A DNA stretch of 32,000 nucleotides from positions 330,001 to 362,000 of the forward strand of contig CP064964.1 of NCBI GenBank assembly GCA_016699205.1. Direction: 5' to 3'. Origin of the DNA: Candidatus Saccharimonadota bacterium (GTDB lineage Bacteria; Patescibacteriota; Patescibacteriia; 2-12-FULL-60-25). This document shows positions 4,085-27,758 of this stretch, piece by piece. The notes under the pieces were generated by a model. It saw only the letters and a program-made list of their open reading frames with translations, did no database searches and was not told where the DNA came from. Both the position numbers and the translations under genes were made by a program. Position 1 is the first letter of the stretch; every line of letters starts with the position of its first letter.

Positions 4085-7000
4085 TTACGGTGCAGGCTCA
4101 GGGGCTGGCTCTGGTGCTGGCTCCGGAGCAGGCTCCGGTTCAGGAGTCGGCTCTGGTTCCGGAGTTGGAGCAGATTCCGGGGCGGGCTCCGTGCTTGTCG
4201 GCGACGCAGGGACTTCTGGCGGCGGCTCGATACCGGTGTCTGTAGCTATGTCCGGAATGATCGGCCCACCAAGGATGATTTCGACGGTTGAAGTCGTCCC
4301 GTCGGAAATCGTCACAATGCCCTCTTCGGCTCCAAAAGCGGTCCAGTTAAATAAGACAGCCTCTGCTTGCTCCGGACGCATAGCGATATCAAACCCTTCC
4401 ACGGTCACATTTTCCACACCGTAGTCGATCGACTTGAGGCCAATCGGGGTAATGCTTACGATTGGCTGCTTGTCATACGTATTTTCAAATCGTACGCGGA
4501 GCTGTGTTGCACCGCTCAGCATTTTGGCTTGGCCAACCGTATCCGATCCAAAGTTCACCCGCTCTTTGACAACAACCACGCCGCTAAAGGTCGATGTCGA
4601 AACAAAAACGTCCGTGGACTCGATCGGCGAATCCGTCACCGTAATCGAGCCGGTTGTTGTGGCGCCGATTCTGTTTTGCAGATCCGTAATGAGACCCTGC
4701 TGCTCTTTCACCGAGTTGATCAACGCATAGGTAAGTGCGTTGGGATCAAAAGTGAATACTTCGGTTTTTTCTACATCATCTTTATTAAGCTTCATTCGTG
4801 TAGAAGAAACCATATATGGCGCGATACCCTGAACATCCTGCGCGATAACGCCGATGTAACTCGTACCAGTCGCTATGCCTCCGAGACCGTTGTAACGGAA
4901 ATGTACTGGGTTGATCTTTGTAATGACATTCAATCCATCAACAAACGAAGAGACGTCTTCTTTCAAACGCTGGTCTGAGAACGTCTGCCAGGTACCTCCT
5001 CCAATCTTTGAGGCATCTCCATTCACACTGAGTAGATTATCTGGCGCCAATGTTCCAATACCGACTTGACCTGACTCATCAATAGTAAATACGGATGCGG
5101 ATCCTGGGCGATTGGGATACACCGAGAATGTACCGTTGATATTGGCACTTCTACCCACATGCAAGCCACCTTTGACCTCAAGCTCTCCTCCGATAGAAGC
5201 GTCCTCACGCGTCGCAAGCGTATCTGTCTCCAGGCCGCCAATTTCTGCTTGCTGAAATACGGAGCCGCCTAAGTCAAACACCTCTAATATCCGATCACTG
5301 GAGTTGGGAACAAAGATATATCGACCCTGTACAGCAGCGTATTGCGGGGAGCCACCCGTCCTGTTTGAACCTAAATAGATAGGACTTGCGCGATTTGTAA
5401 TATCGATAAAATCAACCGTATCATTACCAGAAGCAGTCACATAAGCCATATCTCCTTGCACATTTACCGAGATTGGATCCCTATTCGTATTTTCCGTGCC
5501 TGACAACACTGGAGAAGCTGGGTTTGAAATATCAATTATCTCCAAGGTTCGATCTCGATTAGAAACAACGTATGCATAACGCCCCTGAACCTGAACATCC
5601 GTAGGTAAGCGATTCGTTGCAATAGTACCAACAATCGATGGTGCGCTCGGTAATCGAATGTCGACAATCTGCAGTTCTCCGGTTGAGCAAACCACGTATG
5701 CATATCGATCCTTTACCGTCATGCGCGCAGGATCGGCACAAATACCGAGACTCGTAACAGGTGTGGCTTGCGAAGGATCAGCAACATCGATTACTTCAAA
5801 GCGTCCACTATCACCCGCCGTGTATGCATAGCGACCTTGAACAGCAAGCGCCCTTGGACCAGCCGAAATCCCTTCTGCATCCGAGACACTAATATTTACC
5901 GGGTCCGTAATGTCATAAATATAGAGTAGAGCTGTGTCGTTTGCAATAACATAAACATAGTGGCCAAGAACAACGACGTCTACCGGTACCTTATCCACCG
6001 ACACAGAACCTAGCACGGCCATATTTGCAGGTTCCGTCACATCGACAATATTCAATTCGAAAGAGTTGCGATTTATTACCGCTGCGTAACGACCCTGGAT
6101 ATCGACCGCGTATGTTCCTGCCGACAGCCCAATACTACTTATCGCAGGTTGATCAAAGCGCGCCGCTACTTGAAACTGGCTTACTGGTGTCGCTGTTCCA
6201 ATGCCAACGTTTTGCGCTTCCGTCACTCGCATTACCTCAGTATTGTTTGTACCAAATACGATGGGAGTCGATATATCCGTGTTCAGCATCAATCCTGAAG
6301 GAGCATTGCTGCGAATAAAACTCCCTGTCGCAAGCGGGATATTGCCCAATGTACCCCCAACAGAAGCTCCGTATTGATAAAAGCCTAAAGTATTTCCTGC
6401 ATTATCCGATGTCCCAATTCTTGCCGTACCACCAGCATTATTACTCTTCGCAACGATCGCTGCTTCGGATAACGAGTTCTCAACGGTCAACGCCCATTGT
6501 GGATTTGTCGAATCACCAAAACCAACGAATCCATTTGCATTATTTATCACCATGCGAGAAGCAGCGCCCGGACCAACAATTCCACCAGGACCATTCAAGA
6601 TCTGGAATTGACGATCGCCATTTTGCGTCATGCTCCACGTCGAGGTTCCGAGGTTGATGGTATTGATCCAGGCGTTATTCCAACGTGAAGTGGAAGCGCC
6701 GAGGTCAAAGGCGAGGCCGGTTTGCGGGAGAATTGTTTGAAACGTGGAGGTATTTTGAACGTAGATAGGGAGTGTCGTTGTGTTTCCGCGAGCGGTAACG
6801 GTCTGGAAGGTGTCAGCGGAATTGGTACCAGTTGCAACAACAGCCCAACCCGTAAGCGTATTGGTACCCGTCTCCTTGATGTACATGCGGCCATTCGTTG
6901 AATCGATCGCAAGATCACCGATAGAACCGGTTGTGTTTCCGTTAGGCACGGCATCGACACGGAATAACTGGAAGTCACCCCCAGCATTAGCGACGGTCAT

Positions 7001-9859
7001 GATTGCTTGTGTATTTGTTGCGCCGTTATTAAACCGCGCGGCGAGATTTGTGCCGCCGCTCAAGCCTGCAAGAGCAATGTCAAGACCAATGTTTAAACCC
7101 GTTGAATTTAGACCGCCGTCATCGGGATTAATAATGAGCTGAGTCGTATCCCCTGTTTGGTTACCAGAATTAGTCGCGCTCGCGATTCTTTGACCAAAAC
7201 GAGCTGTTCCAGAACCCGTTAGTGCGTTGTTTACACGGAATTCGCGATTTGATTGGACAATGTTAGCGCTCGTGATCGAAAAATCCGCCTGCGTCGTTCC
7301 GCCATTGGCGCCAAGGTGCAGCTGCCTTCCGGTTAATGCATTGATGTACGTATCTCCGCTAGCCGTACGAATTGTAAAGACATCAGAGCTGTTGCCTTGT
7401 TGCGCATAAATCGTGTCCCCTGCGCCCGTTACTCTGAGCGCGTGACTTGAGGCGCTTGCACCTACATTCATCGTATAGTTACCGCCGCCGGTCGTCTCAC
7501 CTGCAACCGTCACAATACCTGTTGTACCCACCGTGATGCGATTCGTGCCGTTTGTTTCAAGCGCTAAACTCTGCGTATCATTTGTTCCGAGCACCGCGGT
7601 TGCGCCAAACGAATTACCATTTTGCTGGAAGAAGTTGCTCGTCGAAGGGATCGTACCCGTCGCTATAGAAACCCATCCGGTATTTGTTCCAGCACCCGTC
7701 TCCTTGAGATAGAGCCGGCCATTCGTCGAGTCAACCGTCAGATCGCCCTGCGAACCCGCAATCAGACCCTCGGGCGTGGTTGAAGCATTGAAGATCTGGA
7801 AATTGCCGACAGGATTCTCTACCGTCAAAATACCGACCGCTTGGTTGGAAGTGCTCAATAAATGCAGCTTGGTCGCTGGGGTCGATGTACCAAAGCCGAC
7901 ATTGCCTTGGACAATGAGACCATTTGCCGGGGCGTTCACTGTTGAATACCCTGTTCCTCCGACCGCAAGCGAGCCATTTACACTCAGTCTATTTGAGGTA
8001 TATGGAACCGTTCCGATTGCGACTCCGCCCGTGGAGCTGACCGCAATAAATGAAGCTCCATTATACATCAGATCAAAACGGTTAGGAGCTGTTCCGTCGC
8101 TCGCCAATTTCCATTCATTTGTATCAGATGTCCCGACTGCTAAATAAGCATTGTTTGTAGCACGAACCGTTATTCCGTCTCCATTACCAACATTTACATA
8201 CAGCTTAGAAGTCGGGTTAACCGTGCCAATACCAACGTTTCCACTTGTTGCCGAGATCGAGAAGCGTTCATTTCCGGTTCCTGATCCACCGTCAAAAATC
8301 GAGAAACGTTGACCGGCGGATTGCGCTAACGACCAGGTCGATGTTCCAACATTCACGATGCCCGCAAATAATTGCGCCCAGCGTGTTGTCGTTGAACCAA
8401 GCGAGTAGGTATTGTGAGCTTCCGGGATAATGTCGCGGAAGGTTGAGGTGTTTTGTATGTAGATCGGGAGCGTGGTCGTATTTCCGCGAGCGGTGACCGT
8501 TTGAAGGGTGTCGGCGGTATTTGTACCCGTAGCCACACCGACCCATCCCGTGTTGGTGTTTGTTCCCGTTTCCTTAATGTACATGCGACCATTCGCCGAG
8601 TCGAAGGCGATATCGCCTAGCGAACCGGTAACCGCGCCTTCAGGGGAGGCTTGCGTAACAAATTGCTGTATATCACCCCCATTATTCTGATAGGTCGTGA
8701 TCGCTGTTGTGGAAGCAGCGCCTGTACCGATATGCAATCGTGCGGTAGCGGTTGTTACGCCGACACCAAAGTTGCCCGTGTTATTAAAGACACCGACTTG
8801 TGAACCACCGAGGTTGAGACGCATGTGCGTGCCGCTCGCCATGACGATACCCGTGCCGGAGCGGTTGGCGATATTGAAGTAGTCAGCGCCAAAGGAGTTG
8901 CCTAAGTACTGGATCATGCCCGAATTTGTACCAGTCGGATTTGTAGCATCGGCTGAGAGATACATTCGCGCACCGTCGGAGTCGGTGTGGAAGCTATAGC
9001 CGTCACTCGTGCCGCCGGCAACGATGCGGAAGTGAGAAGGCGAGAGGCCGCCAGATACAGGGACGCTTAGCTCAACCGGGCCTGAATCAACGACAATAAC
9101 TCGTCCGGCTCCAGCGCCGGTGTCATCATAAGCAGAATCGAGGGAGTTGCCCGTACTGCTCGCACTCGACAGCGCGAACCATCCTGTATTACCACCGTCT
9201 GTTGTCTTTACGTAGAGCTGTGATGCGCCGTCCGGACCATCGGTTCGCATGTATAAGCTACCGGAGTCGGCCGTATAGACACCTTCCGGACTACCCGTAT
9301 TTACGAACATGTTAACGGATCCGCCGGTCTGTGAAAGTTGAAGCAGTGATACATCCCCAGAAGCTGCCGCGTTGAAATTAAAACCGTATGTCACGGCACT
9401 TTGGTTGGCGAAAAAATTGATTGAAGAACTGTTATGACTGATATCCATCGAGTCATAGTTCATCTCAATATTTGCCGTCTGCCCTCCAAGCACATCAAAT
9501 AACGAATACGCCGCTACCGGATATACACCACCGGTGTTCGTAAAATACATCGATGCGTATGAGGAGTTATCAAAACGATCGACACCTTCACCTAGTTTTA
9601 AAAAGTCGATTCGATTTGGACCGGCATTTAATTTACCGACCGAGAAACCAGTCGATGTCGCATTACCGTCAATCCCGTCCCCTCCGATGACAAATGCCGG
9701 ATTGTATCCGAGGAATGATTGTGACCTCGAGGGGGCAAAAATGGATACTGGTTGCCCCTCAAGAGCTGTGATCGTACGACCCGCGTCGTAAGCGCCCTGC
9801 AAGGATCGGTGCCTCCAACATAGCTCGCAAAGGTGGAAGATGTAACGATCGCATCCCAA
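4085..9859 (-). CDS. giant tail-fibre-like surface protein, distal 1,924-codon ORF (knob/shaft repeats, LVIVD propeller, S74-type chaperone domain, lectin-like domain, PE-rich tail)
   Basis: Long uninterrupted ORF with Ser/Thr/Gly/Asn-rich repeats. Motifs are described in the findings. The listed start is a TTG with five stops directly upstream, no signal peptide, and a junk-like first ~20 residues. The true 5' end is therefore probably in the upstream ORF. Confidence 0.85.
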   Translation of the reverse strand: MGCDRYIFHLCELCWRHRSLQGAYDAGRTITALEGQPVSIFAPSRSQSFLGYNPAFVIGGDGIDGNATSTGFSVGKLNAGPNRIDFLKLGEGVDRFDNSSYASMYFTNTGGVYPVAAYSLFDVLGGQTANIEMNYDSMDISHNSSSINFFANQSAVTYGFNFNAAASGDVSLLQLSQTGGSVNMFVNTGSPEGVYTADSGSLYMRTDGPDGASQLYVKTTDGGNTGWFALSSASSTGNSLDSAYDDTGAGAGRVIVVDSGPVELSVPVSGGLSPSHFRIVAGGTSDGYSFHTDSDGARMYLSADATNPTGTNSGMIQYLGNSFGADYFNIANRSGTGIVMASGTHMRLNLGGSQVGVFNNTGNFGVGVTTATARLHIGTGAASTTAITTYQNNGGDIQQFVTQASPEGAVTGSLGDIAFDSANGRMYIKETGTNTNTGWVGVATGTNTADTLQTVTARGNTTTLPIYIQNTSTFRDIIPEAHNTYSLGSTTTRWAQLFAGIVNVGTSTWSLAQSAGQRFSIFDGGSGTGNERFSISATSGNVGIGTVNPTSKLYVNVGNGDGITVRATNNAYLAVGTSDTNEWKLASDGTAPNRFDLMYNGASFIAVSSTGGVAIGTVPYTSNRLSVNGSLAVGGTGYSTVNAPANGLIVQGNVGFGTSTPATKLHLLSTSNQAVGILTVENPVGNFQIFNASTTPEGLIAGSQGDLTVDSTNGRLYLKETGAGTNTGWVSIATGTIPSTSNFFQQNGNSFGATAVLGTNDTQSLALETNGTNRITVGTTGIVTVAGETTGGGNYTMNVGASASSHALRVTGAGDTIYAQQGNSSDVFTIRTASGDTYINALTGRQLHLGANGGTTQADFSITSANIVQSNREFRVNNALTGSGTARFGQRIASATNSGNQTGDTTQLIINPDDGGLNSTGLNIGLDIALAGLSGGTNLAARFNNGATNTQAIMTVANAGGDFQLFRVDAVPNGNTTGSIGDLAIDSTNGRMYIKETGTNTLTGWAVVATGTNSADTFQTVTARGNTTTLPIYVQNTSTFQTILPQTGLAFDLGASTSRWNNAWINTINLGTSTWSMTQNGDRQFQILNGPGGIVGPGAASRMVINNANGFVGFGDSTNPQWALTVENSLSEAAIVAKSNNAGGTARIGTSDNAGNTLGFYQYGASVGGTLGNIPLATGSFIRSNAPSGLMLNTDISTPIVFGTNNTEVMRVTEAQNVGIGTATPVSQFQVAARFDQPAISSIGLSAGTYAVDIQGRYAAVINRNSFELNIVDVTEPANMAVLGSVSVDKVPVDVVVLGHYVYVIANDTALLYIYDITDPVNISVSDAEGISAGPRALAVQGRYAYTAGDSGRFEVIDVADPSQATPVTSLGICADPARMTVKDRYAYVVCSTGELQIVDIRLPSAPSIVGTIATNRLPTDVQVQGRYAYVVSNRDRTLEIIDISNPASPVLSGTENTNRDPISVNVQGDMAYVTASGNDTVDFIDITNRASPIYLGSNRTGGSPQYAAVQGRYIFVPNSSDRILEVFDLGGSVFQQAEIGGLETDTLATREDASIGGELEVKGGLHVGRSANINGTFSVYPNRPGSASVFTIDESGQVGIGTLAPDNLLSVNGDASKIGGGTWQTFSDQRLKEDVSSFVDGLNVITKINPVHFRYNGLGGIATGTSYIGVIAQDVQGIAPYMVSSTRMKLNKDDVEKTEVFTFDPNALTYALINSVKEQQGLITDLQNRIGATTTGSITVTDSPIESTDVFVSTSTFSGVVVVKERVNFGSDTVGQAKMLSGATQLRVRFENTYDKQPIVSITPIGLKSIDYGVENVTVEGFDIAMRPEQAEAVLFNWTAFGAEEGIVTISDGTTSTVEIILGGPIIPDIATDTGIEPPPEVPASPTSTEPAPESAPTPEPEPTPEPEPAPEPAPEPAPEPAP
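4088..4200 (-). repeat. tandem 6-nt-periodic repeat encoding the C-terminal PEPAPE/PEPEPT tail
   Basis: The plus strand reads ggtgcaggctcaggggctggctctggtgctggctccggagcaggctccggttcaggagtcggctctggttccgga. On the minus strand this translates to ...PTPEPEPTPEPEPAPEPAPEPAPEPAP*. Confidence 0.85.
4670..4985 (-). other. S74-type intramolecular chaperone / autoproteolysis domain inside the giant ORF
   Basis: GGGTWQTFSDQRLKEDVSSFVDGLNVITKINPVHFRYN...IGVIAQDVQGIAPYMV...LTYALINSVKEQQGLITDLQNRI. The SDxRLK motif (Ser codon TCA at 4978..4976) plus the terminal coiled helix is the hallmark of the endosialidase/tail-fibre chaperone domain. Confidence 0.75.
5263..6120 (-). other. seven LVIVD-type repeats (predicted 7-blade beta-propeller) inside the giant ORF
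   Basis: There are seven ~42-aa units of the form V(Q/K)GRYAYVV...(L/F)ExIDIsxPxxPxxxG. Examples are VQGRYAYVVSNRDRTLEIIDISNPASPVLSG and VQGRYAYTAGDSGRFEVIDVADPSQATPVTS. Confidence 0.75.
8391..8512 (-). repeat. intragenic DNA repeat, copy in the 1,924-codon ORF
   Basis: Hand alignment to 11726..11847 gives 99 of 122 identical positions. A ~59-nt core has only 4 mismatches (gaggtgttttgtatgtagatcgggagcgtggtcgtatttccgcgagcggtgac). It encodes ...TARGNTTTLPIYIQNTSTFRDIIPE.HN.YSLG. Confidence 0.8.
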
Positions 9860-10751
9860 TCACTATTATCACCATCACAGGTTGTTTAACAAACAATTGA
9901 TTTGTAGCTCCAACTGCATCCGTCTGAAAGTAAATTGACCCACTTTCAGCTACGATTACGCTCTCCGGGGACCCGACGCCAACGTACTGAATGATGGATG
10001 CTACATCGGTATCGTTCGACAAACGCAATAACGCCTGCTGATTTGCGTTTGCAGAATTGGAAATATTCATCGCTGCAAGTGAACTGATTTCCGTATTGTT
10101 CAGTGCAAAATTGGATTTCGTGCTACCGCCATTGCCTAACAAAGAAAAACCAAAGCTGTTTAGATCATGGTTGTAGTAAGCAAATGTTCCTGATGCCCCG
10201 GCTGGATTCAATACATCATCCGTCATGCCAAATGATGAAATATCATTTGCGAAATTTGATCGGCCAAATACGATTCCTCGGCTCGTGTTCAAATCGGTAG
10301 TGATGGCGAGACCTGGCACGCTTGAGAACGCGCCGGGTGTAGGCACCGAGATATAGACCGGGGTTGAAGTCGATGATGTCAAAATTGCATTGCCGCCGTC
10401 ATAAGCAGTTTGAAGAGATACTGCCGTCGTTGTTGACGTTAGCGAGGAAACATCCGCAAGTGCAACCCATCCCGTCGTACCACCCCCATTAAAGACCTTT
10501 ACATAAACCTGCGTTGACGAGCTGCCGCTTGAATCCGTGCGGTAGTACATAGAACCGAGCGTTGCAGAAACGACTCCTTCCGGATCACCCGTTCCTACGT
10601 ATTGATTCATTGCAGCCACGTTGTTGGCTAAACGTAATACGCTCACTTCCGGGGCCGTCGAGTTATTGTAAATGAGCACGGCTCCATCCGTCCCAAATCC
10701 TGTCAGCGCAATCTGACCATCGCCGATAATATCAACGTCCGTAGCCTCCAA
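9759..10751 (-). CDS. middle fragment (330 codons) of the tail-fibre-like mega-gene; probably not an independent gene
   Basis: TTG start with no SD and no signal peptide. It contains two knob motifs. Its last ~40 residues look out of frame, and the repeat modules continue across both of its borders in other frames. It overlaps the next ORF by 101 nt. Confidence 0.6.
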   Translation of the reverse strand: MEATDVDIIGDGQIALTGFGTDGAVLIYNNSTAPEVSVLRLANNVAAMNQYVGTGDPEGVVSATLGSMYYRTDSSGSSSTQVYVKVFNGGGTTGWVALADVSSLTSTTTAVSLQTAYDGGNAILTSSTSTPVYISVPTPGAFSSVPGLAITTDLNTSRGIVFGRSNFANDISSFGMTDDVLNPAGASGTFAYYNHDLNSFGFSLLGNGGSTKSNFALNNTEISSLAAMNISNSANANQQALLRLSNDTDVASIIQYVGVGSPESVIVAESGSIYFQTDAVGATNQLFVKQPVMVIIVIGMRSLHLPPLRAMLEAPILAGRLRRGSYDHSS

Positions 10752-10797
10752 GAAAGCCGTGCCAGACTTGGATTGAAGGCAATACGCGCTCCGGAAT

Positions 10798-13700
10798 TTA
10801 ATAAACCGAGCTCAAATCATTTGTTTCTTTTGTATGCGAAAGATAGCCCGTGTAGGTGGTAGACCAGTTTGTTAAATCATTACCAAAAACAGCGACCGTG
10901 CCGCTCGAGAACCCAAAATCAAATGTTCCCACCGAGAAACCACCGGCTGTGTCGGTAGGACTCTGTATCTGGATAGCGGGATAGTAGTCGAGGCCGCCGC
11001 TAACAACTCCGCTGACATTAAGCTGAACCGGACCGCTGTCGAGTGAGATAGCACGTCCACTGCCGGCGCCAGATGCGCCGTCGTACGCTAAGTCGAGCGT
11101 TGGAAATGCCACAGACGTGCCCGTAGCTACTCCAACCCATCCGGTATTTGTATTTGTTCCTGACTCTTTGATGTAGAGTCGGCCGCTTGTGGAATCGACA
11201 GCTAAGTCGCCACGAGATCCAGTAATAGAACCATTTGGGTCCGCCTGAATAGTAAACAGCTGATAGTCGCCTGCCGTATTTCCGATCGTCATGATCGGCG
11301 TTGTGCTTGCGCTAGAGGCCAACAAATCGAGCTTTGTTGCCGGTGTCGATGTTCCAATACCAACAAACCCATTTGGCATGATGATTCTGGCTGCGTTGTC
11401 ATCGACACGGATAAACGTATTGGAATTCCAGCCGATATAATCTCCAATAGAAACCGTATTTGCTACTGGATCAAGCAAAAAGATCTCTTCACCGCTATTG
11501 CCGCCCATCAAAACACTTCCTCCTAGCACATGCAGACGCGCAAGCGGTACCGTCGTTTGATCAGAAGTACCAATTCCAACATCTCCATTTGGATTGACAC
11601 GGATCGAGTCATTTAAATTAGCGGTGTTTCTCAATGAGAATCCGGCATTTGATGCTTGTTCCAAGGCCCAGGTACTTGAACCGACATAGGTCGTAACCGC
11701 GTACAGCTCTTTCCATCGCGTTGTTGTTGTGCCGAGCGAGTACAGGTTGTGCGTTTCCGGAACAATGTCTCTGAACGTCGAGGTGTTTTGTACGTAGATC
11801 GGAAGCGTGGTCGTATTTCCGCGTGCGGTGACGGTTTGTAACGTATCGACTTCCGTCCCGGATCCTGTTCCCGTGGCAAACGGAGCCCAGCCCGTAACCG
11901 TGGCTGTGCCAGTTTCTTTAATGTAGAAACGCCCCCCGACAAGATCAACAGCAAGATCCCCTATCGATCCAGAGACAAATCCTTCTGGTGACCCCGTTGC
12001 GTTGAACATCTGAATGTCCCCATTCGTATTTTGCAAGGTGAAAATCGGAACGATGGTTGACGCGCCGGAATTTACTTGCAATCTCGATGTCGCCGTTGTG
12101 ACGCCGATCCCCAAACTACCCTCCATCACGTTCAAGGAGTTTGATCCAGCCGAATACAGATTGTAATTGTTTACTCCAACACCTGCCTGATTTGCCAAAA
12201 AAAGACCGTAGTTATTCGTAATCGTTGCACCAGCGCCATTATTAAAGGTCTCGCCATAAAGCGCATAGGCACTCGTTACATTTCCCGCTCCAAACGAATA
12301 GGACTGTCCAAACACGCCAATCGAACTTCCGATCGTTCCTGTTCCACCAATGGCGGAAATACCGATTGAGCCATACGACGTTTGCAATAACCCGGTGCCA
12401 ATATGTGAAACCTGGCCTCTGACACCTGAAATTTCGCTTGTAAAATTTGTCGCGCCAGCTGTTTCTACAGAAGATTCGTAGGCGCTTACAGATGCGGGTG
12501 TACTAGCTTCACCAGAATTCAGCCTCAAAAACGATGCGACACCGCGCGTATAATCGGCGAGAGGGCTTGTAAACTCTTCCTCTACATTCAGCACCACCGA
12601 GCCCGGTGTGCTCGCGAACACAGATCCTCCGTCAATAATTCCGGAGTTTCCTACGGTCATATGACCGAGAATCTGGAAATTGTCAGAGACCGTCGAGGTT
12701 CCTGCGCCGGTGATATTAAGGACACCGGTTGAGGTACCGCCCGCAAACTGAATCGTGTTCGTAGTTGAATTGCCGCGGTTCGTGACGGTTTGTAACGTGT
12801 CGACTTCTGTGGTTGATACATTAGAAATTGCGAGATCTAAATCATCCAATACATCCTGAATATTGGTCGCGTTAGAGAAGGTGAATTCATCAAAGACACC
12901 GATCAACCAGGCACCGGAGTTCGTGGAGGTTGTGCCTGTGGCATTGATGGCAATCGTGTTGATGTAGAGGGTGTTGGAGAGATTTAGGGAGACACCGGTC
13001 GCCGAATCAAAGTTGATATACGTCGCACCGACATTGGTCGCAAACAGATTGGTGCTCGTCGTATTGGTACCCGTCGCATTCACCCAGGTGATGTCTGTAA
13101 AGTTGGCTGCACCGAGAACGTTAAGATTTGTTGTTGTCACTGTTCCAAACTCGCCATTCCAGCGATTGGCGGCGCTTCCAAGGGAGTAGGCAAGGTCGAG
13201 AGCTGGAACAAGGTCGGTGTTGAAACGGCCATTCACCGAGATAAGATCGGCGGAAGAACTGCCCAAGGTCGTATTCCCCTGCACATCAAAATTGCCAGCG
13301 ATCGTGGAAGTAACGGTTGAAGAGCTCATCGTGAAGTAGGCTCCGAGGAAGCCTCCGGTCAGGATGTTGAAATTCAGGTTCTGATCGAGAGCAAGAAGCG
13401 TGTTGGCAGCGGCCGTCGAGGAAGCGGAGAAGGTGTCGACCGCTTCTGCATTCAAAGCGTATGGAAAGGCCGAGAGCTGAACGCGGGGGTTGGCTTCTGC
13501 ATCCGCGCCGATACGGACACCGAGGAAGAGCGTCTGGTTCCAATCGATGTAAGACGGGAAGACAGCACAGGCGGAACCGAGCTGAACAGCAAAGTAGCCA
13601 TCAGCATCCGGGGTGATTTGGGGACAAGCACCGCCATCGTAGACACCCTTCCAGAGAAGCGGACCGGAGGAAGATGCGGTGTCGGTGTATGCACCCAACG

Positions 13701-13908
13701 TCTGGGACGAGTAGATGCTGAATTGAATGTCCGTCGGAACCGTAATAGGAGCAAGGGTCGATGAACGGAGGCGAGATTGGTAGTTAATTTCCCGAGGAAC
13801 GGAAGCAAGCGCGGAATTTACTTGAAAGAAACCTAAGATAGCGAAAAAAACTACCGTGAATACGGCTATCAAAGAGCGGAAGGTGCTTTTCTTACCCGAA
13901 AGGGGCAT
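10798..13908 (-). CDS. giant tail-fibre-like surface protein, proximal 1,036-codon ORF with signal anchor
   Basis: It has an N-terminal signal/anchor (KKSTFRSLIAVFTVVFFAILGFFQVNSALA). The head begins REINYQSRL...FSIYSS...LLWKGVYDGG. It carries the fibre motifs LAYSLGSAANRW and LYSLGTTTTRW and two knob motifs (GGRFYIKETGTATVTGW, SGRLYIKESGTNTNTGW). Confidence 0.85.
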   Translation of the reverse strand: MPLSGKKSTFRSLIAVFTVVFFAILGFFQVNSALASVPREINYQSRLRSSTLAPITVPTDIQFSIYSSQTLGAYTDTASSSGPLLWKGVYDGGACPQITPDADGYFAVQLGSACAVFPSYIDWNQTLFLGVRIGADAEANPRVQLSAFPYALNAEAVDTFSASSTAAANTLLALDQNLNFNILTGGFLGAYFTMSSSTVTSTIAGNFDVQGNTTLGSSSADLISVNGRFNTDLVPALDLAYSLGSAANRWNGEFGTVTTTNLNVLGAANFTDITWVNATGTNTTSTNLFATNVGATYINFDSATGVSLNLSNTLYINTIAINATGTTSTNSGAWLIGVFDEFTFSNATNIQDVLDDLDLAISNVSTTEVDTLQTVTNRGNSTTNTIQFAGGTSTGVLNITGAGTSTVSDNFQILGHMTVGNSGIIDGGSVFASTPGSVVLNVEEEFTSPLADYTRGVASFLRLNSGEASTPASVSAYESSVETAGATNFTSEISGVRGQVSHIGTGLLQTSYGSIGISAIGGTGTIGSSIGVFGQSYSFGAGNVTSAYALYGETFNNGAGATITNNYGLFLANQAGVGVNNYNLYSAGSNSLNVMEGSLGIGVTTATSRLQVNSGASTIVPIFTLQNTNGDIQMFNATGSPEGFVSGSIGDLAVDLVGGRFYIKETGTATVTGWAPFATGTGSGTEVDTLQTVTARGNTTTLPIYVQNTSTFRDIVPETHNLYSLGTTTTRWKELYAVTTYVGSSTWALEQASNAGFSLRNTANLNDSIRVNPNGDVGIGTSDQTTVPLARLHVLGGSVLMGGNSGEEIFLLDPVANTVSIGDYIGWNSNTFIRVDDNAARIIMPNGFVGIGTSTPATKLDLLASSASTTPIMTIGNTAGDYQLFTIQADPNGSITGSRGDLAVDSTSGRLYIKESGTNTNTGWVGVATGTSVAFPTLDLAYDGASGAGSGRAISLDSGPVQLNVSGVVSGGLDYYPAIQIQSPTDTAGGFSVGTFDFGFSSGTVAVFGNDLTNWSTTYTGYLSHTKETNDLSSVY
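11726..11847 (-). repeat. intragenic DNA repeat, copy in the 1,036-codon ORF
   Basis: Partner of 8391..8512 (see that entry). A more diverged third copy lies at about 6700..6830. Confidence 0.8.
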
Positions 13909-14030: not shown

Positions 14031-15017
14031 TTAGAATACGAGTTTCCACTTCCCCTGCTCCATCATGAACGTGTAATTTGCGATTCCGCTTGAAGTGAAG
14101 ACCTCAATGTTGATAACTTGTGGAAATATTTCGCCCGAAATTACGGACTGATACTTGTCGATTCGCTTGATACTTCCGATGTAAACCGGTCCAGAAGAAA
14201 GATCGACCGGGGTGAAGTTCGTCTTATACGAGTTCACGTACTGATCCTGAGAATAGCCTGCCTTGATTTTATCTGCGGTAACTTGCTTATAGAGATTGCG
14301 CTTGTCCCCTTTTGCTTCAAGCTCGGCTACCTCGACGAGCGACTGCATAAGTCCCGGATCAAAGATGAGATCAATCTTGCCCGGGCCCTGGACCTCTTTG
14401 TTGATAACGCGCTTTACTGCCGGATGTGAGATGCGGATTCCGGCCTCCGAGGATACCGATGGGAAGGCAAACATACCGCTCTCCCCTGTCACGATACTCG
14501 TATCTCCCGAGATCAGCGTTGCGCCTTGGACAGGCATGCCGTTTGCGTCGACTAATGCACCGCTTACATCTTTTACCATCATTTTTTGACCTGGAGCGAT
14601 ATAATTCATCGTTTTCTCAAGAATCGATGTACCCCAGTTCAGCGTGAGACCGACAATGAGCGACAAGACAACCATTACGACAGAGAAATACATTGCATGA
14701 CGCAAATATTTCTTCTTTTTCTTGAGATCAGCGTTTTCGTCGGCGATTTTTCCAAGTCGGATGTTATTTGCAGCCAAAATCAGAATGATGACCAGAAAGA
14801 ACAGGAAGGACAGACCAAAAACCGGAGGCATAACCTGCGTTAAACGGTCGACCATGCTGCGCTCAACGTAAAGCAGCGCATCATCCTGGGCCCCGTTATC
14901 GTCCTCAACAACGACTTTATGTAAGCCGGCCGGAACATTTGGCGGCACCTCGATCTGCCAGGTTCCGTTTGGCGCGATCTCGGCTGTGCCGGTCGCGATG
15001 ATTGTTTGGTCGGCCAT
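14031..15017 (-). CDS. two-TM membrane protein with an N-terminal half Ig-like domain and a CarboxypepD_reg-like domain
   Basis: ATG at 15017 (MADQTIIATGTAEIAPNGTWQIEVPPNVPAGLHKVVVEDDNG). The ORF is open up to 15071, and the track lists a TTG at 15065. It has two TM helices (VFGLSFLFFLVIILILAA, AMYFSVVMVVLSLIVGLTL) separated by a KKKKK loop. VSGALVDANGMPVQGATLISGDTSIVTGESGMFAF resembles a carboxypeptidase-regulatory-like fold. Confidence 0.75.
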   Translation of the reverse strand: MADQTIIATGTAEIAPNGTWQIEVPPNVPAGLHKVVVEDDNGAQDDALLYVERSMVDRLTQVMPPVFGLSFLFFLVIILILAANNIRLGKIADENADLKKKKKYLRHAMYFSVVMVVLSLIVGLTLNWGTSILEKTMNYIAPGQKMMVKDVSGALVDANGMPVQGATLISGDTSIVTGESGMFAFPSVSSEAGIRISHPAVKRVINKEVQGPGKIDLIFDPGLMQSLVEVAELEAKGDKRNLYKQVTADKIKAGYSQDQYVNSYKTNFTPVDLSSGPVYIGSIKRIDKYQSVISGEIFPQVINIEVFTSSGIANYTFMMEQGKWKLVF

Positions 15018-15021
15018 AGTT

Positions 15022-17544
15022 TTAGTAAATAATGATACGAATATTTCCAACTCCGCCGCTTCCAAACAAGTTCAATGTACCGCCAACCGGAGCAATATTC
15101 TCGATCTTAGGACCATTTCCTGTACCCGTGGGCTGAGTCGATACTGTTGGCGGACGCGTTGGGTTGACAGGTGTATTCACCTGCACAGGAACGACGCCGT
15201 TACGCGAAGGGCGGGTGGTCGTGCGCGATGGAGCCGGTGTCGGAGCTGGCGCTGGACAAATCAACTCCGTTGGAATCGGCGTACCTTCCTCGCTCAAAAT
15301 ACGCGTTGAAAAGACCGGCGTCATCAAGACTTCTTTACCGTAAACTTCTTGTCCGTTGGACTCCGTGATTGGACGGAAATAGTAGAGTTTTCCAGCTTCA
15401 AGGCCATCGATTACGACCGCATGATAGGTATCATTGTGATTGTATTCTGGCGTAGAATTATCGTAACCGTAATTTGGACGAAGCGTCATATCAACCGATG
15501 TTTGCTCGCCGTAAACAACGCGCCCTGTGCCGGGACGGTTAGACAGCCAAGAGACGAGTACAGAATCCCCGTCAATCTGGTCAACGCGTACCGTGGTAGC
15601 GTTGATTTCAATAACATAAGAGGTTCCGCCGCCGCCAGTCGTAGGACAGCTTGTGACCGTAGTTGAGCTAGCGGTTCCAACGCAAGATGAGCCGTTCCAG
15701 GTCGTATTTACGCCGCAGAATGTTGCACCGGAAGGACAGACGCCTGTACCGTTCGCTACCAACCCGTAGACAACACGCGGCATCAAATTGTTACTCGTAT
15801 CACGTGAGTAAATAATAACCGGAATCGCTTCACCGTCTGCAAATGTTAGCGGACCAATGTTGAAATCGTATTGATTCGTCGAGGTTGAAACGTAGAACGG
15901 CGTGAAGTTCGTAGAGGTCGCAAAGGAGATGATTGTTCCTGAGAGCGTGACTGACCCTGCGCCACCGCCAGCCGAGTAGTAGATACCGTTAATGAAGATC
16001 ACGGTATTGTTAATATCAACGCCCACACCGTCATCACGCAGACCGAACTGTATATTCGTGGATGTTGCTGCAATTTGATCGTTGTCAGGCAATTTGTTGA
16101 TAACGTACGGCGGATCCGTATCTGAGGTATCAAAGAACCAGTTGTCGTCGGCCATTGTGTTAGCAACTAAGTCCTGACAAGCGTAAGCGCGCACCCAAAC
16201 GCGTTCATTTTGTGCAAAATCGGTAGCCGGGTTGATGACGTACTGAAAACCGTAAGAGATCGGGTTGATCGTCACGAATGCACTCGGCAAAGCGTACGTT
16301 GTCGTAGCCTGAGACTCGGACCAGACATCAAAAGCACAGGTCGTTGTAGCAACACCGACACCGGACGGACCTGCTGGGTAGGTTTTACGATCTTCTACGT
16401 TAATCGTAATATTCGTCGCGATTGAATTTCCAGCGCTACTTGCAGCCGGTGTTTCACTCACGACTTGCGGTGCAACCGTGTCTGGCTCCGTGGTAAAGTC
16501 AAAGCACTTGGTTAGCATCGAGTTAGGACCATTTGGTTCACCGAGCTGGTTCTGAGACGCCGACGCCAAGTCCTGATAGTTAGCAATACAAAGCTGATAG
16601 GCTTGGTTATAGAGCCAGTTTCGCGTATCCCCTACAATTCCTAGCGGGCTTGGCGGGTCGATGGTGGTGTTACAGACATTCGTACCCCAGACACCGGAAC
16701 AGGAATAAGCATCAAAACTTGTTGGAACAAAGTGCGTTGGAGTAAGTGTGAGCGTGCCAGGAGGTGTTGCCGTATTTACACCAGTTCCAACGCCGCCAGC
16801 ATTGTTAGCTGTAGAGGTTGAAAAACCTTCACCGTCGCGAGTATCGAATAAGCGGAATAAGTAGTTCGCATCGATAACGACACCCGTGGTGCCCGAGGCG
16901 ATGTTATTTGTTTCCGCGAATGGGCGGATCGTATCGGCCCAAAAGTGGACTTGAAAATCTTCTGCGCTGTCGAGCAAATCGACGCCGGCATTGGAAATAT
17001 TTGATTCCGTTGTAGCCCCAATGACGCCGATGTTTATATCCAAAGTTGCCGGACTCGAGGTTGCGCGCGCTAACGAATTTGGACGGCTTACCGTCCAGTC
17101 GACATTTCCAAAAGTCCCTGTACCGGAAGAAACGGATACCGGAATGTTAGCACCCGTAGAGAAAACGCGACCAACGCCTGGAGAAACCGTCGAACTCACG
17201 TTCTGACCGCTCCACGTGTTAAAAAATGAGCCCGTTGTTAGGTTGGAGGCCGTCGTGGTTGTTGACGGATAATCGATCCAAATATTGGCAGCCGTTGCTC
17301 CTGGACCCGTTGATCGGATTTGGATCACTGACGTAAACGTCTGACCGACATAGTAGTAGTTCAGGTCAGAACCATTTCCCGTGTTTCCATCACCCGTATT
17401 ATCAGAACCTGTTTGCTGGTTGGTTAGGAGCTGGAACCAGTCGGCTCCGGTTGGAGCGGCGGCTTGCGCCATGCCGGACATGCCAATCGCTAGCACAAGG
17501 CCGAGCGTGGCAAAACCTGCAAACCGTCGGAAGAGATGTTTCAT
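15022..17544 (-). CDS. secreted 840-aa surface protein (cohesin-like N-terminal module, Fn3/PAP-N-like module, Pro-rich linker, truncated Ig-like end)
   Basis: Signal peptide MKHLFRRFAGFATLGLVLAIGMSGMAQAAAP. I prefer ATG 17544; the track start is GTG 17562. VRVDQIDGDSVLVSWLSNRPGTGRVVYGEQ...YHAVVIDGLEAGKLYYFRP is Fn3-like. The linker reads APAPTPAPSRTTTRPS. The protein ends ...LNLFGSGGVGNIRIIIY*. Confidence 0.85.
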   Translation of the reverse strand: MKHLFRRFAGFATLGLVLAIGMSGMAQAAAPTGADWFQLLTNQQTGSDNTGDGNTGNGSDLNYYYVGQTFTSVIQIRSTGPGATAANIWIDYPSTTTTASNLTTGSFFNTWSGQNVSSTVSPGVGRVFSTGANIPVSVSSGTGTFGNVDWTVSRPNSLARATSSPATLDINIGVIGATTESNISNAGVDLLDSAEDFQVHFWADTIRPFAETNNIASGTTGVVIDANYLFRLFDTRDGEGFSTSTANNAGGVGTGVNTATPPGTLTLTPTHFVPTSFDAYSCSGVWGTNVCNTTIDPPSPLGIVGDTRNWLYNQAYQLCIANYQDLASASQNQLGEPNGPNSMLTKCFDFTTEPDTVAPQVVSETPAASSAGNSIATNITINVEDRKTYPAGPSGVGVATTTCAFDVWSESQATTTYALPSAFVTINPISYGFQYVINPATDFAQNERVWVRAYACQDLVANTMADDNWFFDTSDTDPPYVINKLPDNDQIAATSTNIQFGLRDDGVGVDINNTVIFINGIYYSAGGGAGSVTLSGTIISFATSTNFTPFYVSTSTNQYDFNIGPLTFADGEAIPVIIYSRDTSNNLMPRVVYGLVANGTGVCPSGATFCGVNTTWNGSSCVGTASSTTVTSCPTTGGGGTSYVIEINATTVRVDQIDGDSVLVSWLSNRPGTGRVVYGEQTSVDMTLRPNYGYDNSTPEYNHNDTYHAVVIDGLEAGKLYYFRPITESNGQEVYGKEVLMTPVFSTRILSEEGTPIPTELICPAPAPTPAPSRTTTRPSRNGVVPVQVNTPVNPTRPPTVSTQPTGTGNGPKIENIAPVGGTLNLFGSGGVGNIRIIIY

Positions 17545-17551
17545 AAGAAAA

Positions 17552-18358
17552 TTATTGTTCACCGTTCAAGTCAAGATTTTTCAGCATAATACTCAAATCT
17601 ACGGAGTTGATTACAATGTCCTGGTTAAGATTTGATCTATAGGCGTTACCCGTAACATCATCCAGGTCGAGCTCCGGCAAGATCAGGGACAAATCAACAG
17701 AATTCACAACATCGTCTCCAAGTGTAGATGTTGACGTCCCCAGATCATTGATATCACCACCAAGTAATCTCAAGTCACCGTAATAACCAGGGGTATTTGT
17801 GGCATTTGTGAAGTTCAGCACCGTTGTCGTACCCGTGTTCAACGTTACATCCTGTAAAATCTTGCGAAGGTGTTGATGTGTCTTGATACCTACATCATAA
17901 ACACCTGCGGGTGCCGCGAATGAGACTGATGTCGTGTATGTACCGTCGACGGAAGTTGTCGCCAAATACGCCATGCTCTCGACAATGACGTTATCCGCAT
18001 CTCCCGGGGTATGGAGACTCAGATAAAAGATGGCGTCATCATTCGTTGATGTTGCGCCTACACGAAGCTCAGGGACGGCCCATTGAATCGAAAGATTGAT
18101 ACCCGTCGCAGAAAAAAACCAAATGGTTCCGTGATCAAAAACAAAGTTTGTCGAGGTCGACTGACCAACGCCCGGGTGACCGATTTCCGCTTTGATGTCG
18201 TAGTTTGTTGAGCCGCCTGTATACTCCACAGGGCCTCCGCGTTCTTGATTTACATCAAAGTTGGTTGACGAAGCTGCAAAAACAAGGGCAGGAACTACAA
18301 TCATGCCACTGGCAACGATGGCCAAGAAACCGTACAAAAATGAACGTCGCGAGGACAT
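17552..18358 (-). CDS. secreted protein with a C-terminal dockerin-like module
   Basis: Signal peptide (FLYGFLAIVASGMIVVPALVFAASS). It has three S(T/S)N(F/Y) motifs. The C-terminus carries two EF-hand-like repeats, LGDDVVNSVDLSLIL and NLNQDIVINSVDLSIMLKNL. These fit the dockerin pattern DxNxDxx(I/V)NxxDLxx(L/M)xK. Confidence 0.8.
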   Translation of the reverse strand: MSSRRSFLYGFLAIVASGMIVVPALVFAASSTNFDVNQERGGPVEYTGGSTNYDIKAEIGHPGVGQSTSTNFVFDHGTIWFFSATGINLSIQWAVPELRVGATSTNDDAIFYLSLHTPGDADNVIVESMAYLATTSVDGTYTTSVSFAAPAGVYDVGIKTHQHLRKILQDVTLNTGTTTVLNFTNATNTPGYYGDLRLLGGDINDLGTSTSTLGDDVVNSVDLSLILPELDLDDVTGNAYRSNLNQDIVINSVDLSIMLKNLDLNGEQ

Positions 18359-24657: not shown

Positions 24658-25230
24658 GTGAGTGAACGATATCGGACACAGAGGATCAAACGCTGGGGCT
24701 CCAAATCGGAACGGGTACAGAACCCCTACTGGTTGAACCCAAATCAGATCGAGCCTATCGACCTGGAGCATCTCTCCCGCCTGAACGAATCCGAGGATGT
24801 ATCCAGGATGCGAAAGGCTGTCGAAGAGTTTGCTGCAGCCGATGGGGACATGCTCCTCGTCCGTGACTCGGCGAATCAGGTTCATAGCGAGCACAGCCGC
24901 ATCGTCGGATTCCTCACGTTCGCGATCGTCCCTGTCCTCGATGGACGGAAGCTTATCGTGACCGGGGTTCGAATCGAACCGGAGTGCCGCGTCGACGAGG
25001 TTCACACTGTTCTCCAAGCAGAGCTTGCTGACATTGCGAAGCGTAACGACATCCGACACTTTGACCAGGTACCCAGGCCGACGAGCGAGCGGCGCGTCCG
25101 CAACTCCGGCTACAGCGCGGTCAAGATCGTCGAACGCTTTGACGATCTGGTCCCCGATGATCCCAAGATCGACGATACTGCAGATGGTACGCCGACGAGA
25201 AGAATGGGGATTCCCGGGCGTAAACACTGA
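24658..25230 (+). CDS. hypothetical protein (acidic, loosely acetyltransferase-like, not assignable)
   Basis: GTG start 5 nt after a perfect AGGAGG. Third codon positions are G/C-rich in this frame. A plus-strand terminator follows 7 nt after the stop. The fully overlapping minus ORF 24571..25227 is its antisense shadow. Confidence 0.6.
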   Translation: MSERYRTQRIKRWGSKSERVQNPYWLNPNQIEPIDLEHLSRLNESEDVSRMRKAVEEFAAADGDMLLVRDSANQVHSEHSRIVGFLTFAIVPVLDGRKLIVTGVRIEPECRVDEVHTVLQAELADIAKRNDIRHFDQVPRPTSERRVRNSGYSAVKIVERFDDLVPDDPKIDDTADGTPTRRMGIPGRKH

Positions 25231-25236
25231 CTACAA

Positions 25237-25280
25237 GACCCCTGTACCAACACTCGGTACAGGGGTCGCTGCATTTTTTA
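25237..25280 (+). terminator. rho-independent terminator of the plus-strand orphan gene
   Basis: 12-bp stem gacccctgtacc/ggtacaggggtc with a 7-nt loop, followed by gctgcatttttta. Confidence 0.65.
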
Positions 25281-25321
25281 TAAAAAAGAAACGCGCCCCA
25301 CCAGAATTGGTGGGGCGCGCG
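25280..25321 (-). terminator. rho-independent terminator of lipoprotein gene 1
   Basis: The minus strand reads CGCGCCCCACC-AATTCT-GGTGGGGCGCG followed by TTTCTTTTTTAT, starting 4 nt after the TGA stop. Confidence 0.8.
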
Positions 25322-25324
25322 AGT

Positions 25325-26116
25325 TCATGAGGGCGTGATGCGGAGGACGATGATGGAGCCGAAAGCCGTCGGACGACTTTCCTGGCTCACATGACCATCC
25401 GCCGGTGCCGTGCTGCGCTCTACACCATCTTCCCACAGCCGATAGCCGGAGGAGTAGGCGGGGCAGCCGGTAGACGTGCACGCCGGACCCGACGCGTACG
25501 TCGGGTAGGCGTAGAAGGGACCGCTGCCAATGGTCGTTCGTCCAGGATCGGGAACGGTGATCTCGCACTCGGTCGTGCGAGCATCGATGCGGCGAAGGAC
25601 GTCGCAGGCGGAAGCGAAGACCGTGAGGCCTTCTGGATCCCGGTTGTCCGGCATGCGGAAGACTCCGCCGCCGGTGACCGTCCAGTAGAACTGAATCCTC
25701 CATCCAGTCACCTCGGGCGAGCCCTCGGTGTTCTGGAAGCGGATACAGAATCCGCTCGTGGAGTCTTCGCAGCGGCGCGGAGGGCCGCCATCGATGGGGA
25801 CGGGACCGGAGTCTCGTCCGGCGTCGGGAGGTGTTGCCGCATCCGTACCGGCGTCCGTGCCTGCATCGACTCCCCCGTCGGGGTCGATCCAGGCGTCGGG
25901 CAGAGGACCTGCGTCGCCGTCGGGAACCCAGGCATCGACTCCGCCATCGAGCGGCATGCTGCCATCGGGCAAGTCGGCGTCCGCGACGAGAGGCACGCAC
26001 AGCGAGCCCCCCGGCTCGTACATCGTGCCTACGGGACATCCGAGGGCACTGCGATCGAGCATGCAACCCGGCAGAGCCAGGAGCGTCACACAGAACAGGA
26101 GCGATTTTTGAGTCAT
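25325..26116 (-). CDS. secreted lipoprotein, Asp/Gly/Ala/Pro-rich linker plus 6-Cys C-terminal domain (paralog 1)
   Basis: Lipobox LLALPGC. The linker reads DADLPDGSMPLDGGVDAWVPDGDAGPLPDAWIDPDGGVDAGTDAGTDA. The C-terminal domain has CEDSTSGFCIRF...CDVLRRID...ECEI...ACTSTGCPAY. AGGAGG lies 5 nt before the ATG. Confidence 0.8.
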   Translation of the reverse strand: MTQKSLLFCVTLLALPGCMLDRSALGCPVGTMYEPGGSLCVPLVADADLPDGSMPLDGGVDAWVPDGDAGPLPDAWIDPDGGVDAGTDAGTDAATPPDAGRDSGPVPIDGGPPRRCEDSTSGFCIRFQNTEGSPEVTGWRIQFYWTVTGGGVFRMPDNRDPEGLTVFASACDVLRRIDARTTECEITVPDPGRTTIGSGPFYAYPTYASGPACTSTGCPAYSSGYRLWEDGVERSTAPADGHVSQESRPTAFGSIIVLRITPS

Positions 26117-26171
26117 TCGCCCTCCTTTTTGGGGCTAGAGGTTAAAGAGCTATCCAGAATCTGAACATCGA

Positions 26172-26200
26172 AATATAGCATAAAATAGGGGTTTTGTCAA
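26172..26200 (-). promoter_or_regulatory. strong sigma70-type promoter of lipoprotein gene 1
   Basis: The minus strand reads TTGACA-17 nt-(TGC)TATATT: -35 at 26200..26195 and -10 at 26177..26172, with an extended -10 TG. Confidence 0.6.
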
Positions 26201-26240
26201 TGGAATAAGAAGAGCCCTCCAATAGGCATTGGAGGGCTCA
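26200..26240 (-). terminator. rho-independent terminator of lipoprotein gene 2
   Basis: 12-bp stem gagccctccaat/attggagggctc with a 4-nt loop. The minus strand continues TTCTTATTCC. Confidence 0.7.
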
Positions 26241-26265
26241 ACAGAGCGATTATTCAGAACGCGTT

Positions 26266-26988
26266 TTATGGGGTGCGGAACTCCACAGCCATGATCATGC
26301 CATGAGGCGTGGGGCGGCGCGCGAGACTAACTGGGCCAGCACCAGGCATCGACGGGACGGATATTCCATCGATCCAGAACCAATAGCCTGTGAAGAAACC
26401 TGCGCACATCGTGCTGTCGCAGCGCGGGGTGGTTGCGAACGGGTAGAGGTAGATCACGCGCTCGGACGAGAGCGGAATCTCCGTGTACAGACAGTCGACC
26501 GTGTTGGGATCGATACGGCGGAGGCCGCCGACGCAGCTGTCGTACGTCCAGCCAGAATCGACAGTGACTCCCCCTTCCGTCCAGTAACGGATCGAGATAA
26601 TGGCGGTCGTCGGCGAGACAGGCTCGGGGTCTGTGAAACGAATACAGAGTCCGAGCTCGTCGTCGCAGGGATCGGGCGGGACTGGAGCGTCTCCGTCGAA
26701 CGAAGCGTCTGACGCCGCGTCATACGAACCATCGTACGAGCCATCTCGGTCGATGGCGGCATCGAGGAGCGAGCCGTCGGGTCGGACGCGTCCGGAATCA
26801 AACGAGCTATCGACCACATCGGTATCGGCAGACAGGCTGCTGTCGACGAGGATGTTGGCGTCGAGGTCGTAGCGACTCGCGTCGAAGGATGCATCGAGGG
26901 AGGCCGTCTCCGGCCGCGGATCGAAGTCGAGGATCAGGCCGCAGCCCGATACCGCAAACAATGAGAGTACGGAAATCAGGCGTGTCAT
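26266..26988 (-). CDS. secreted lipoprotein, Asp/Ser-rich linker plus 6-Cys C-terminal domain (paralog 2)
   Basis: Lipobox LFAVSGC. The linker reads SLDASFDASRYDLDANILVDSSLSADTDVVDSSFDSG. The C-terminal domain is colinear with paralog 1 (CDDELGLCIRF...CVGGLRRID...DCLY...RCDSTMCAGF). AAGGAG lies 6 nt before the ATG. Confidence 0.8.
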   Translation of the reverse strand: MTRLISVLSLFAVSGCGLILDFDPRPETASLDASFDASRYDLDANILVDSSLSADTDVVDSSFDSGRVRPDGSLLDAAIDRDGSYDGSYDAASDASFDGDAPVPPDPCDDELGLCIRFTDPEPVSPTTAIISIRYWTEGGVTVDSGWTYDSCVGGLRRIDPNTVDCLYTEIPLSSERVIYLYPFATTPRCDSTMCAGFFTGYWFWIDGISVPSMPGAGPVSLARRPTPHGMIMAVEFRTP

Positions 26989-27017
26989 CGCCAGCTCCTT
27001 TCAAGGTGCGTCAATCG

Positions 27018-27046
27018 ACACTAGTATTTAAATGTGTTTTTGTCAA
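27018..27046 (-). promoter_or_regulatory. candidate promoter of lipoprotein gene 2
   Basis: The minus strand reads ATTGACAAAAAC, with -35 TTGACA at 27046..27041. This is nearly the same -35 context as the paralog promoter (ATTGACAAAACC). The -10 17 nt downstream (TAGTGT) is weak. Confidence 0.4.
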
Positions 27047-27050
27047 TCGA

Positions 27051-27756: not shown

Positions 27757-27758
27757 TC

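Follow-up and report, generated by a model that had tools for sequence, protein, structure and literature searches.

The minus strand of a 32,000-nucleotide window of contig CP064964.1 (positions 330,001 to 362,000; the window is the whole stretch analyzed, and coordinates below are positions within it) carries three long open reading frames (ORFs) in three different frames, at 13908-10798 (ORF A), 10811-9759 (ORF B), and 9859-4085 (ORF C), over which the sequence of one giant modular protein is distributed. ORF A has 1,036 codons, starts with ATG, and stops with TAA at 10800-10798, 99 residues into a repeat module beginning LDLAYDGASGAG. The frame of ORF B is open over 350 codons, or 330 when counted from its first TTG (10751), and its C terminus reads ...RRGSYDHSS before the stop at 9759; ORF C has 1,924 codons and starts with TTG, with TGA TGG TGA TAA TAG TGA directly upstream. 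A sequence-only reading had proposed that the A/B junction, here called (b), and the B/C junction, here called (a), cut through repeat modules of a split, decayed, or frameshift-dependent gene, and all coordinates and peptide strings that it quoted for both junctions were reproduced.

Frames, modules, and the four shift sites

The three ORFs share the same kinds of repeated module, as seen in an alignment of four ∼200-residue modules with a start of the form L[DQ]xAYD, in which the A/B junction falls ∼100 residues into one module and the B/C junction at the end of the next. At junction (a), the third frame is free of stops from 9885 to 9631 and translates as TTCDGDNSDWDAIVTSSTFASYVGGTDP. When one base is re-read at each of four sites (∼10815, 10769, 9885, and 9805, each a −1 shift, all within 1,010 nt), the pieces join into a single ORF of 9,825 nt and 3,275 codons with zero stops. 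The off-frames of this repaired gene contain 142 and 158 stops, about one per 21–23 codons, and 3,275 open codons from a rebuild with four shifts is far beyond chance. Because the four re-read bases give this stop-free frame and because the orthologs described below have a single ORF, ORFs A, B, and C are colinear pieces of one modular gene, with both junctions cutting modules. The description of the gene as split thus holds for the deposited sequence, in which three colinear pieces correspond to one ORF in relatives. The description as decayed does not: apart from four 1-nt gaps, there is no in-frame stop in the 3,275 codons, and the 1,906 codons past the last shift are open.

The segments and shift sites are listed in Table 1. 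For comparison with relatives at the same locus, we used Candidatus Uhrbacteria SJ877 (L002; JADZFU010000007.1, from the GTDB genomes) and two JGI contigs (L003 and L004).

Table 1. Segments, shift sites, and domains of the repaired gene (slashes mark the shifts)
Feature	Position	Strand	Content and evidence
Segment 1	10816..13908	−	Codons 1–1031, ends ...HTKETND; colinear with SJ877, 62.6% identity over 1,337 columns
Shift site b1	10814..10816	−	−1, GA/TTT GAG (T run or GAN codon); 1-nt gap in nucleotide alignment
Segment 2	10769..10816	−	Third frame, 16 codons FELGLLNSGARIAFNP; homologous peptide in SJ877 and L003
Shift site b2	10768..10771	−	−1, CCA/AAG in short CC/AA runs; frames and relatives
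Segment 3	9885..10769	−	295 codons, KSGTAFLEATDVD...QLFVK; the truly coding part of the "330-codon ORF"
Shift site a1	9885..9887	−	−1, GTT AAA/ACA; frames and boundary alignment
Segment 4	9805..9885	−	27 codons in the frame of segment 1, TTCDGDNSDWDAIVTSSTFASYVGGTD; frame translation and boundary alignment
Shift site a2	9804..9807	−	−1, GAT/TCC TTG; missing base placed within a few nt; SLQGAYD module start restored
Segment 5	4085..9805	−	1,906 codons and stop; matches a single SJ877 frame to the C terminus
Best LVIVD repeat	5486..5599	−	Pfam PF08309, E = 9.7e-26, 89 bits (cutoff 20.2)
Peptidase_S74 domain	4808..4978	−	Pfam PF13884, E = 2.9e-10, 40.7 bits (cutoff 22)

Junction (b) had been described as a single frame change, but it consists of two −1 shifts around 16 codons of the third frame, which brings the total to four rather than three. 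In the nucleotide alignment at b1, the window reads AATGA-TTTGAG, compared with AACGAGTATGAA in L003 and AATGAATTTTCG in SJ877. The 16-codon stretch that follows matches SIGLLNSGGSLEFRP in SJ877 and is identical at 13/16 positions to YEIGLLNSGGRIAFNP in L003; the other two frames over 10769-10816 read LSSVY, ending in a stop, and ARFIKFRSAYCLQS, and show no similarity. Across b2, L003 and SJ877 are uninterrupted (...AFNPTGILLDGTD and ...EFRPTGAILDATD, respectively).

At junction (a), the proposed need for two successive −1 shifts was confirmed. The rebuilt junction is colinear with six intact module boundaries, taken from this gene and from other proteins, and invariant columns flank each shift: K30 precedes the first, W40/A42 lie between the two, and L59/A62/Y63 follow the second. 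At a1, ...QLFVK/TTCDGDNSDW aligns with QLYVKTTDGGNTGW of the intact boundaries, and the A run at this site, now AAA, was probably AAAA formerly. Each of the four lesions is a 1-nt deletion at a short run, 2–3 nt in length (TTT, CC/AA, AAA, and T/CC).

The same locus in relatives and the meaning of the junctions

In SJ877, the syntenic position is occupied by a single frame, open over at least 3,305 codons and cut off by the contig end. The alignment with the window is colinear through junction (b) and up to junction (a), and in a tblastx comparison the single SJ877 frame matches the window's frames −3 (13887-10810), −1 (10778-10014), and −2 (9346-4088) in turn. At the L004 locus, the gene is one intact ORF of 1,678 residues with a Peptidase_S74 domain (P0004), next to the same two upstream genes as in the window (85%–86% amino acid identity). 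L003 (P0003), the closest relative, with 93%–96% amino acid identity in the neighboring genes and a nucleotide identity of 84%, is uninterrupted across the window's b1 and b2 sites. Segment 3, which comprises the second half of the first module and most of the second, is the most conserved portion of the gene (79.7% identity to SJ877 over 10778-10425). A first word-based protein search returned just ORF A itself and one phage-like protein, and a scan of metagenome contigs for the reconstructed junction peptide yielded no relative; a full HMMER search found 307 library proteins that match the in-frame part of ORF B (295 residues), and in the best long ones (1,600–1,760 residues) the ORF B-like stretch is internal, at residues 629-876 of 1,678 and 981-1242 of 1,760.

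Three separately initiated genes with the same boundaries were looked for in the relatives and not seen; one ORF is the usual and ancestral state. It is very improbable that ORFs A, B, and C are separately initiated genes whose products are distinct subunits, even though ORF A has been released by NCBI as a protein of its own. Both boundaries interrupt modules whose paralogous copies and orthologs are continuous, the coding signal crosses two short third-frame stretches that are outside any ORF, promoter-like and terminator-like sites are no more frequent around the junctions than in shuffled sequence, sequence resembling ORF B is in every case embedded in a large protein, and SJ877 and L004 have one ORF. 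The absence of a convincing Shine-Dalgarno sequence at the downstream ORFs, to which the sequence-only reading had drawn attention, is real but uninformative: such sequences are weak genome-wide, most verified genes of the window also have no clear one, and their absence does not decide against separate genes.

A different way for the three ORFs to yield one full-length protein would be programmed −1 ribosomal frameshifting at the four sites, or transcriptional slippage. As in dnaX, IS3-family transposases, and the phage tail assembly chaperone G/GT, the −1 downstream frame continues the protein; the four shifts all have the same direction, and the downstream frames are perfectly kept. In contrast to those systems, with their single shift, there is no heptamer, stimulatory structure, or site conservation here, and after four events in series hardly any full-length product would remain. 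An X XXY YYZ heptamer is absent from 4/4 sites (AAU GAU UUG, AAU CCA AGU, GUU AAA CAA, and ACC GAU CCU in the incoming frame), none of the four has an A/T run of the length that transcriptional slippage requires, and the folds of the downstream 81 nt are insignificant compared with shuffles (z = −0.95, +0.71, +1.33, and −1.46, for pseudoknot-free folds). Neither the shift sites nor the frame arrangement is conserved, with the same peptides encoded in one frame in the relatives (a single ORF in SJ877 and L004, continuity at b1 and b2 in L003). We consider such recoding extremely unlikely, and with it the idea of a frameshift-dependent gene. A methylation motif shared by the four sites was also considered and dropped, as GATC is present at a2 only.

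Origin of the four single-base gaps

CP064964 is the metagenome-assembled genome (MAG) Bjer_18-Q3-R1-45_BAT3C.201_fly, a single circular contig (Singleton et al., 2021, Supplementary Data 3; PMC8012365), with a coverage of 8.2× in Illumina and 15.7× in Nanopore reads and the taxonomy Patescibacteria; ABY1; SG8-24 (PMC8012365). Patescibacteria MAGs with the suffix "_fly" were reassembled with Flye in the --nano-raw mode and polished with Nanopore-based Racon, medaka, and Illumina-based Racon (PMC8012365), and a passage in a further paper states that Nanopore assemblies require short-read polishing to remove homopolymer indels (PMC9262707). The assembly is thus an error-prone long-read one with limited polish, and the four 1-nt lesions lie at runs where the relatives stay in frame. 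We assign a probability of roughly 0.7 to the reading that the four sites are uncorrected 1-nt deletions in the consensus, in which case the organism itself would have no split gene. The colinearity, the shift positions, the intact orthologs, the lack of recoding signals, and the provenance of the assembly are shown here, and error rather than mutation as the source of the missing bases is inferred from them. Consensus indel errors had not been weighed as a cause in the sequence-only reading, although read pile-ups were named there as a check.

In this scenario, the organism would have a single 3,275-codon gene, and four bases would be missing from its deposited sequence within 1,010 nt, each moving the frame by −1. 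An assembly built by Flye from ∼16× of raw Nanopore reads, with only ∼8× of Illumina polish, would have left single-base deletions in 1 kb; the cell would make one full-length protein, and the "junctions" would be nonexistent in vivo. In Oxford Nanopore R9.4.1 assemblies, residual 1-nt indels, mostly homopolymer deletions, split genes into adjacent ORFs, and the NCBI annotation pipeline PGAP labels such split genes "frameshifted" pseudogenes. The present gene resembles these artifacts in being from a low-coverage Flye MAG, in its 1-nt deletions at runs, in being otherwise pristine, in having intact orthologs, and in that its downstream pieces are missing from the protein database. In a database of 5.8 billion clusters, no protein identical to the C-terminal 505 residues of ORF C was found, and this genome's ORF A is represented there; the NCBI protein for ORF A is QQR61159.1 (IPH19_01700, a hypothetical protein of Candidatus Uhrbacteria bacterium), which starts at TTG 13872, has 1,024 residues, and is identical to P0001. 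The absence of a protein for the C terminus of ORF C is consistent with NCBI having flagged the remainder of the gene as frameshifted. Look-ups of ORFs A, B, and C and of P0001 for exact matches in a contig index gave no result.

Several observations weigh against consensus errors as the origin of the gaps. The four shifts fall in 1 kb, with none in the gene's other 8.8 kb, and twelve neighboring genes (∼13 kb) are without a frameshift, as judged by full Pfam domain coverage for EVE, MiaA, MiaB, enolase, SIMPL, PGK, GAPDH, EF-Ts, and S2 and by single-frame matches to relatives for three unnamed genes. A uniform error rate would produce clustering of this degree with P = 0.004 if only the gene is counted and P = 0.0004 if all checked coding sequence is, and an extra local cause is therefore needed. 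Unlike typical Nanopore indel artifacts, the lesions are at runs of just 2–3 nt, shorter than usual, and are confined to 1 kb of a clean 32-kb window to whose assembly an Illumina polish had been applied; the longer runs within that 1 kb (GGGGG, TTTTT, and several 4-mers) stay in frame. One candidate for the local cause would be a gap in the thin Illumina coverage. Another would be interference from co-occurring strains: speculatively, as no other part of this hypervariable gene is as conserved as the affected kilobase, reads of related strains could still align there and disturb the consensus. Mis-assembly across near-identical repeats was also considered as a cause and rejected, as the DNA repeats inside the gene do not overlap 9800-10820.

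If the deletions are instead real, the gene would have been inactivated very recently, or frameshifted alleles would be abundant, and the locus would be a fresh pseudogene from which only the 1,036-residue N-terminal fragment is made. This we regard as unlikely, though with an appreciable chance of being right. Loss or truncation is common among genes for giant hypervariable surface proteins, and the present one evolves fast (L003 is 56%–75% identical to it, a level at which synonymous sites are saturated, compared with 93%–96% in the neighboring genes, and the L004 version is half-size). The rest of the window gives no sign of a generally error-ridden assembly, and short runs are not the classic context of Nanopore errors. 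However, the mixed and scattered lesions of a pseudogene are not found, just four independent 1-nt deletions within 1,010 nt and no other lesion or stop in 9.8 kb, with the 5.7 kb past the last shift perfectly open. Neutral decay would scatter its lesions, and it fits poorly with the confinement of all three further lesions to the 1,010 nt directly after the first one, out of 6,727 nt available (P ∼ 0.003), and with zero nonsense mutations; the low-coverage Nanopore origin of the sequence is a simpler cause. Were the deletions real, they would show an episymbiotic lineage losing or switching a host-attachment-type protein in the very recent past.

The L003 contig shows that frameshifts occur in assemblies of this clade. 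Its copy of the gene is broken elsewhere than in the window, near nt 11,100 and at positions equivalent to SJ877 residues ∼822, 1055, and 1264. In the contig as a whole (JGI sample 3300056789), frameshifts are seen in enolase (nt 73-75) and, about five in number, in the last 2 kb (9290-11140) within the giant gene. Every one of them is close to an end of the 11.3-kb contig, in its first 75 nt or its last 2 kb, a pattern that points to assembly error.

These L003 frameshifts also bear on the possibility of phase variation, in which the conserved part of a hypervariable adhesin gene would contain a real hot spot for single-base indels and would thereby switch heritably ON and OFF or to a truncated form. 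Frameshifts cluster at around SJ877 residues 820–1370 in the window as well as in L003, which are independent assemblies. Yet the positions differ between the two, the L003 shifts are at contig ends and one is in enolase, which suggests assembly error, and there is no long homopolymer or short tandem repeat at the sites, with SJ877 and L004 intact. As in contingency loci, a surface-protein gene is interrupted by single-base length changes; unlike in contingency loci, which depend on slippage in long homopolymers or short repeats, there is no long repeat tract, and four sites would have to be out of phase at once. A hot spot thus has a slim chance of being the explanation; if it were, populations of the candidate phyla radiation would carry switchable truncated and full-length fiber alleles, with the L003 cluster as a second instance.

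Residual consensus deletions, the reading preferred here, would carry a caution: low-coverage Nanopore MAGs from uncultured bacteria can hold local clusters of 1-nt deletions that break their largest genes, and broken genes for giant surface proteins, biologically the most interesting ones in such genomes, can then pass as "split genes," "pseudogenes," or "recoding sites." In the present case, homology-guided repair recovers a fiber-like protein of 3,275 residues, of which the current annotation covers the first 1,024 only.

The repaired protein and its surroundings

At its N terminus, the repaired protein has a hydrophobic signal-peptide-like sequence (MPLSGKKSTFRSLIAVFTVVFFAILGFFQVNSALA, ending between ALA and S as judged by eye). 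Modules make up the next >2,500 residues, followed by LVIVD repeats, the Peptidase_S74 domain, and a tail rich in Pro, Glu, and Ala; segment 5 contains further modules along with the last three of these elements. The run of LVIVD repeats points to a β-propeller region. Peptidase_S74 is the intramolecular chaperone auto-processing (ICA) domain of tail fibers and endosialidases, and the C-terminal part of the protein also matches many PHROG tail-fiber families (E values down to 4.5e-20) and the ICA domain of MYRF (Protein Data Bank [PDB]: 7dc3; 5e-6); homologs are named "tail fiber domain-containing protein" in NCBI. These features are best explained by a secreted, modular, tail-fiber-like giant surface protein of Patescibacteria (class ABY1, "Uhrbacteria"). 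By analogy with S74 tail-fiber proteins (endosialidases and the MYRF ICA domain), with which it shares the PF13884, PHROG, and 7dc3 matches at the C-terminal part, its function is likely that of a trimeric surface fiber or adhesin, the C-terminal chaperone being cleaved after folding. Unlike phage S74 proteins, it has the domain near the end of a 3,275-residue chromosomally encoded Patescibacteria protein, after LVIVD repeats and ∼200-residue modules.

An in-frame ATG at 13908, upstream of the annotated TTG at 13872, adds 12 residues (MPLSGKKSTFRS), and the N terminus of P0004 is homologous to them (MPLPGNKINFHS); ATG 13908 is probably the true start of the gene. The ∼200-residue modules have no match in PDB or Pfam, and a single-sequence AlphaFold prediction of module 3 was unusable, with a predicted local distance difference test (pLDDT) score of 34. 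A motif of ∼50 residues, G[SD]PEG..G[SD].Y..D....Y.K....GW, recurs in the gene (e.g., at 10440-10600, NQYVGTGDPEGVVSATLGSMYYRTDSSGSSSTQVYVKVFNGGGTTGW) and in the 307 library proteins, many short ones of which end exactly at it. No Pfam model matches ORFs A and B, including this motif, and their PHROG matches are weak and to families of unknown function. The motif is also carried by P0002 (1,077 residues), encoded at 10001-13234 of a 16.6-kb JGI contig (L001) whose ORFs are small, tightly packed on one strand, and without a Pfam match, giving it a phage-like look.

At the DNA level, the gene contains direct repeats at 6680-6931, 8378-8629, 11713-11856, and 12760-12810 (51–210 nt, 66%–81% identity), which correspond to a recurring ...TLQTVTxRGN... 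element. The gene is hypervariable in both sequence and module content (window 4085-13908, L003 5119-11311, L004 1653-6689): L003 carries ∼2.1 kb where the window has 0.7 kb, and the L004 version has only 1,678 residues. Two genes precede it in 4/4 loci (14031-17562 in the window; also L002, L003, and L004), encoding proteins of 846 residues, with a weak Pur_ac_phosph_N match, and 344 residues; this pair may be functionally linked to the giant gene.

Elsewhere in the window, the stretch 25000-29000 is GC-rich (0.59–0.63, compared with ∼0.50 elsewhere), contains five ORFs without a Pfam match, and is open in three frames over 25281-26141. Its ORF at 25328-26134 (minus strand) encodes a D/G/P-rich protein that begins MTQKSLLFCVTLLALPGC, which has the look of a lipoprotein signal, and the stretch as a whole may be an acquired island.

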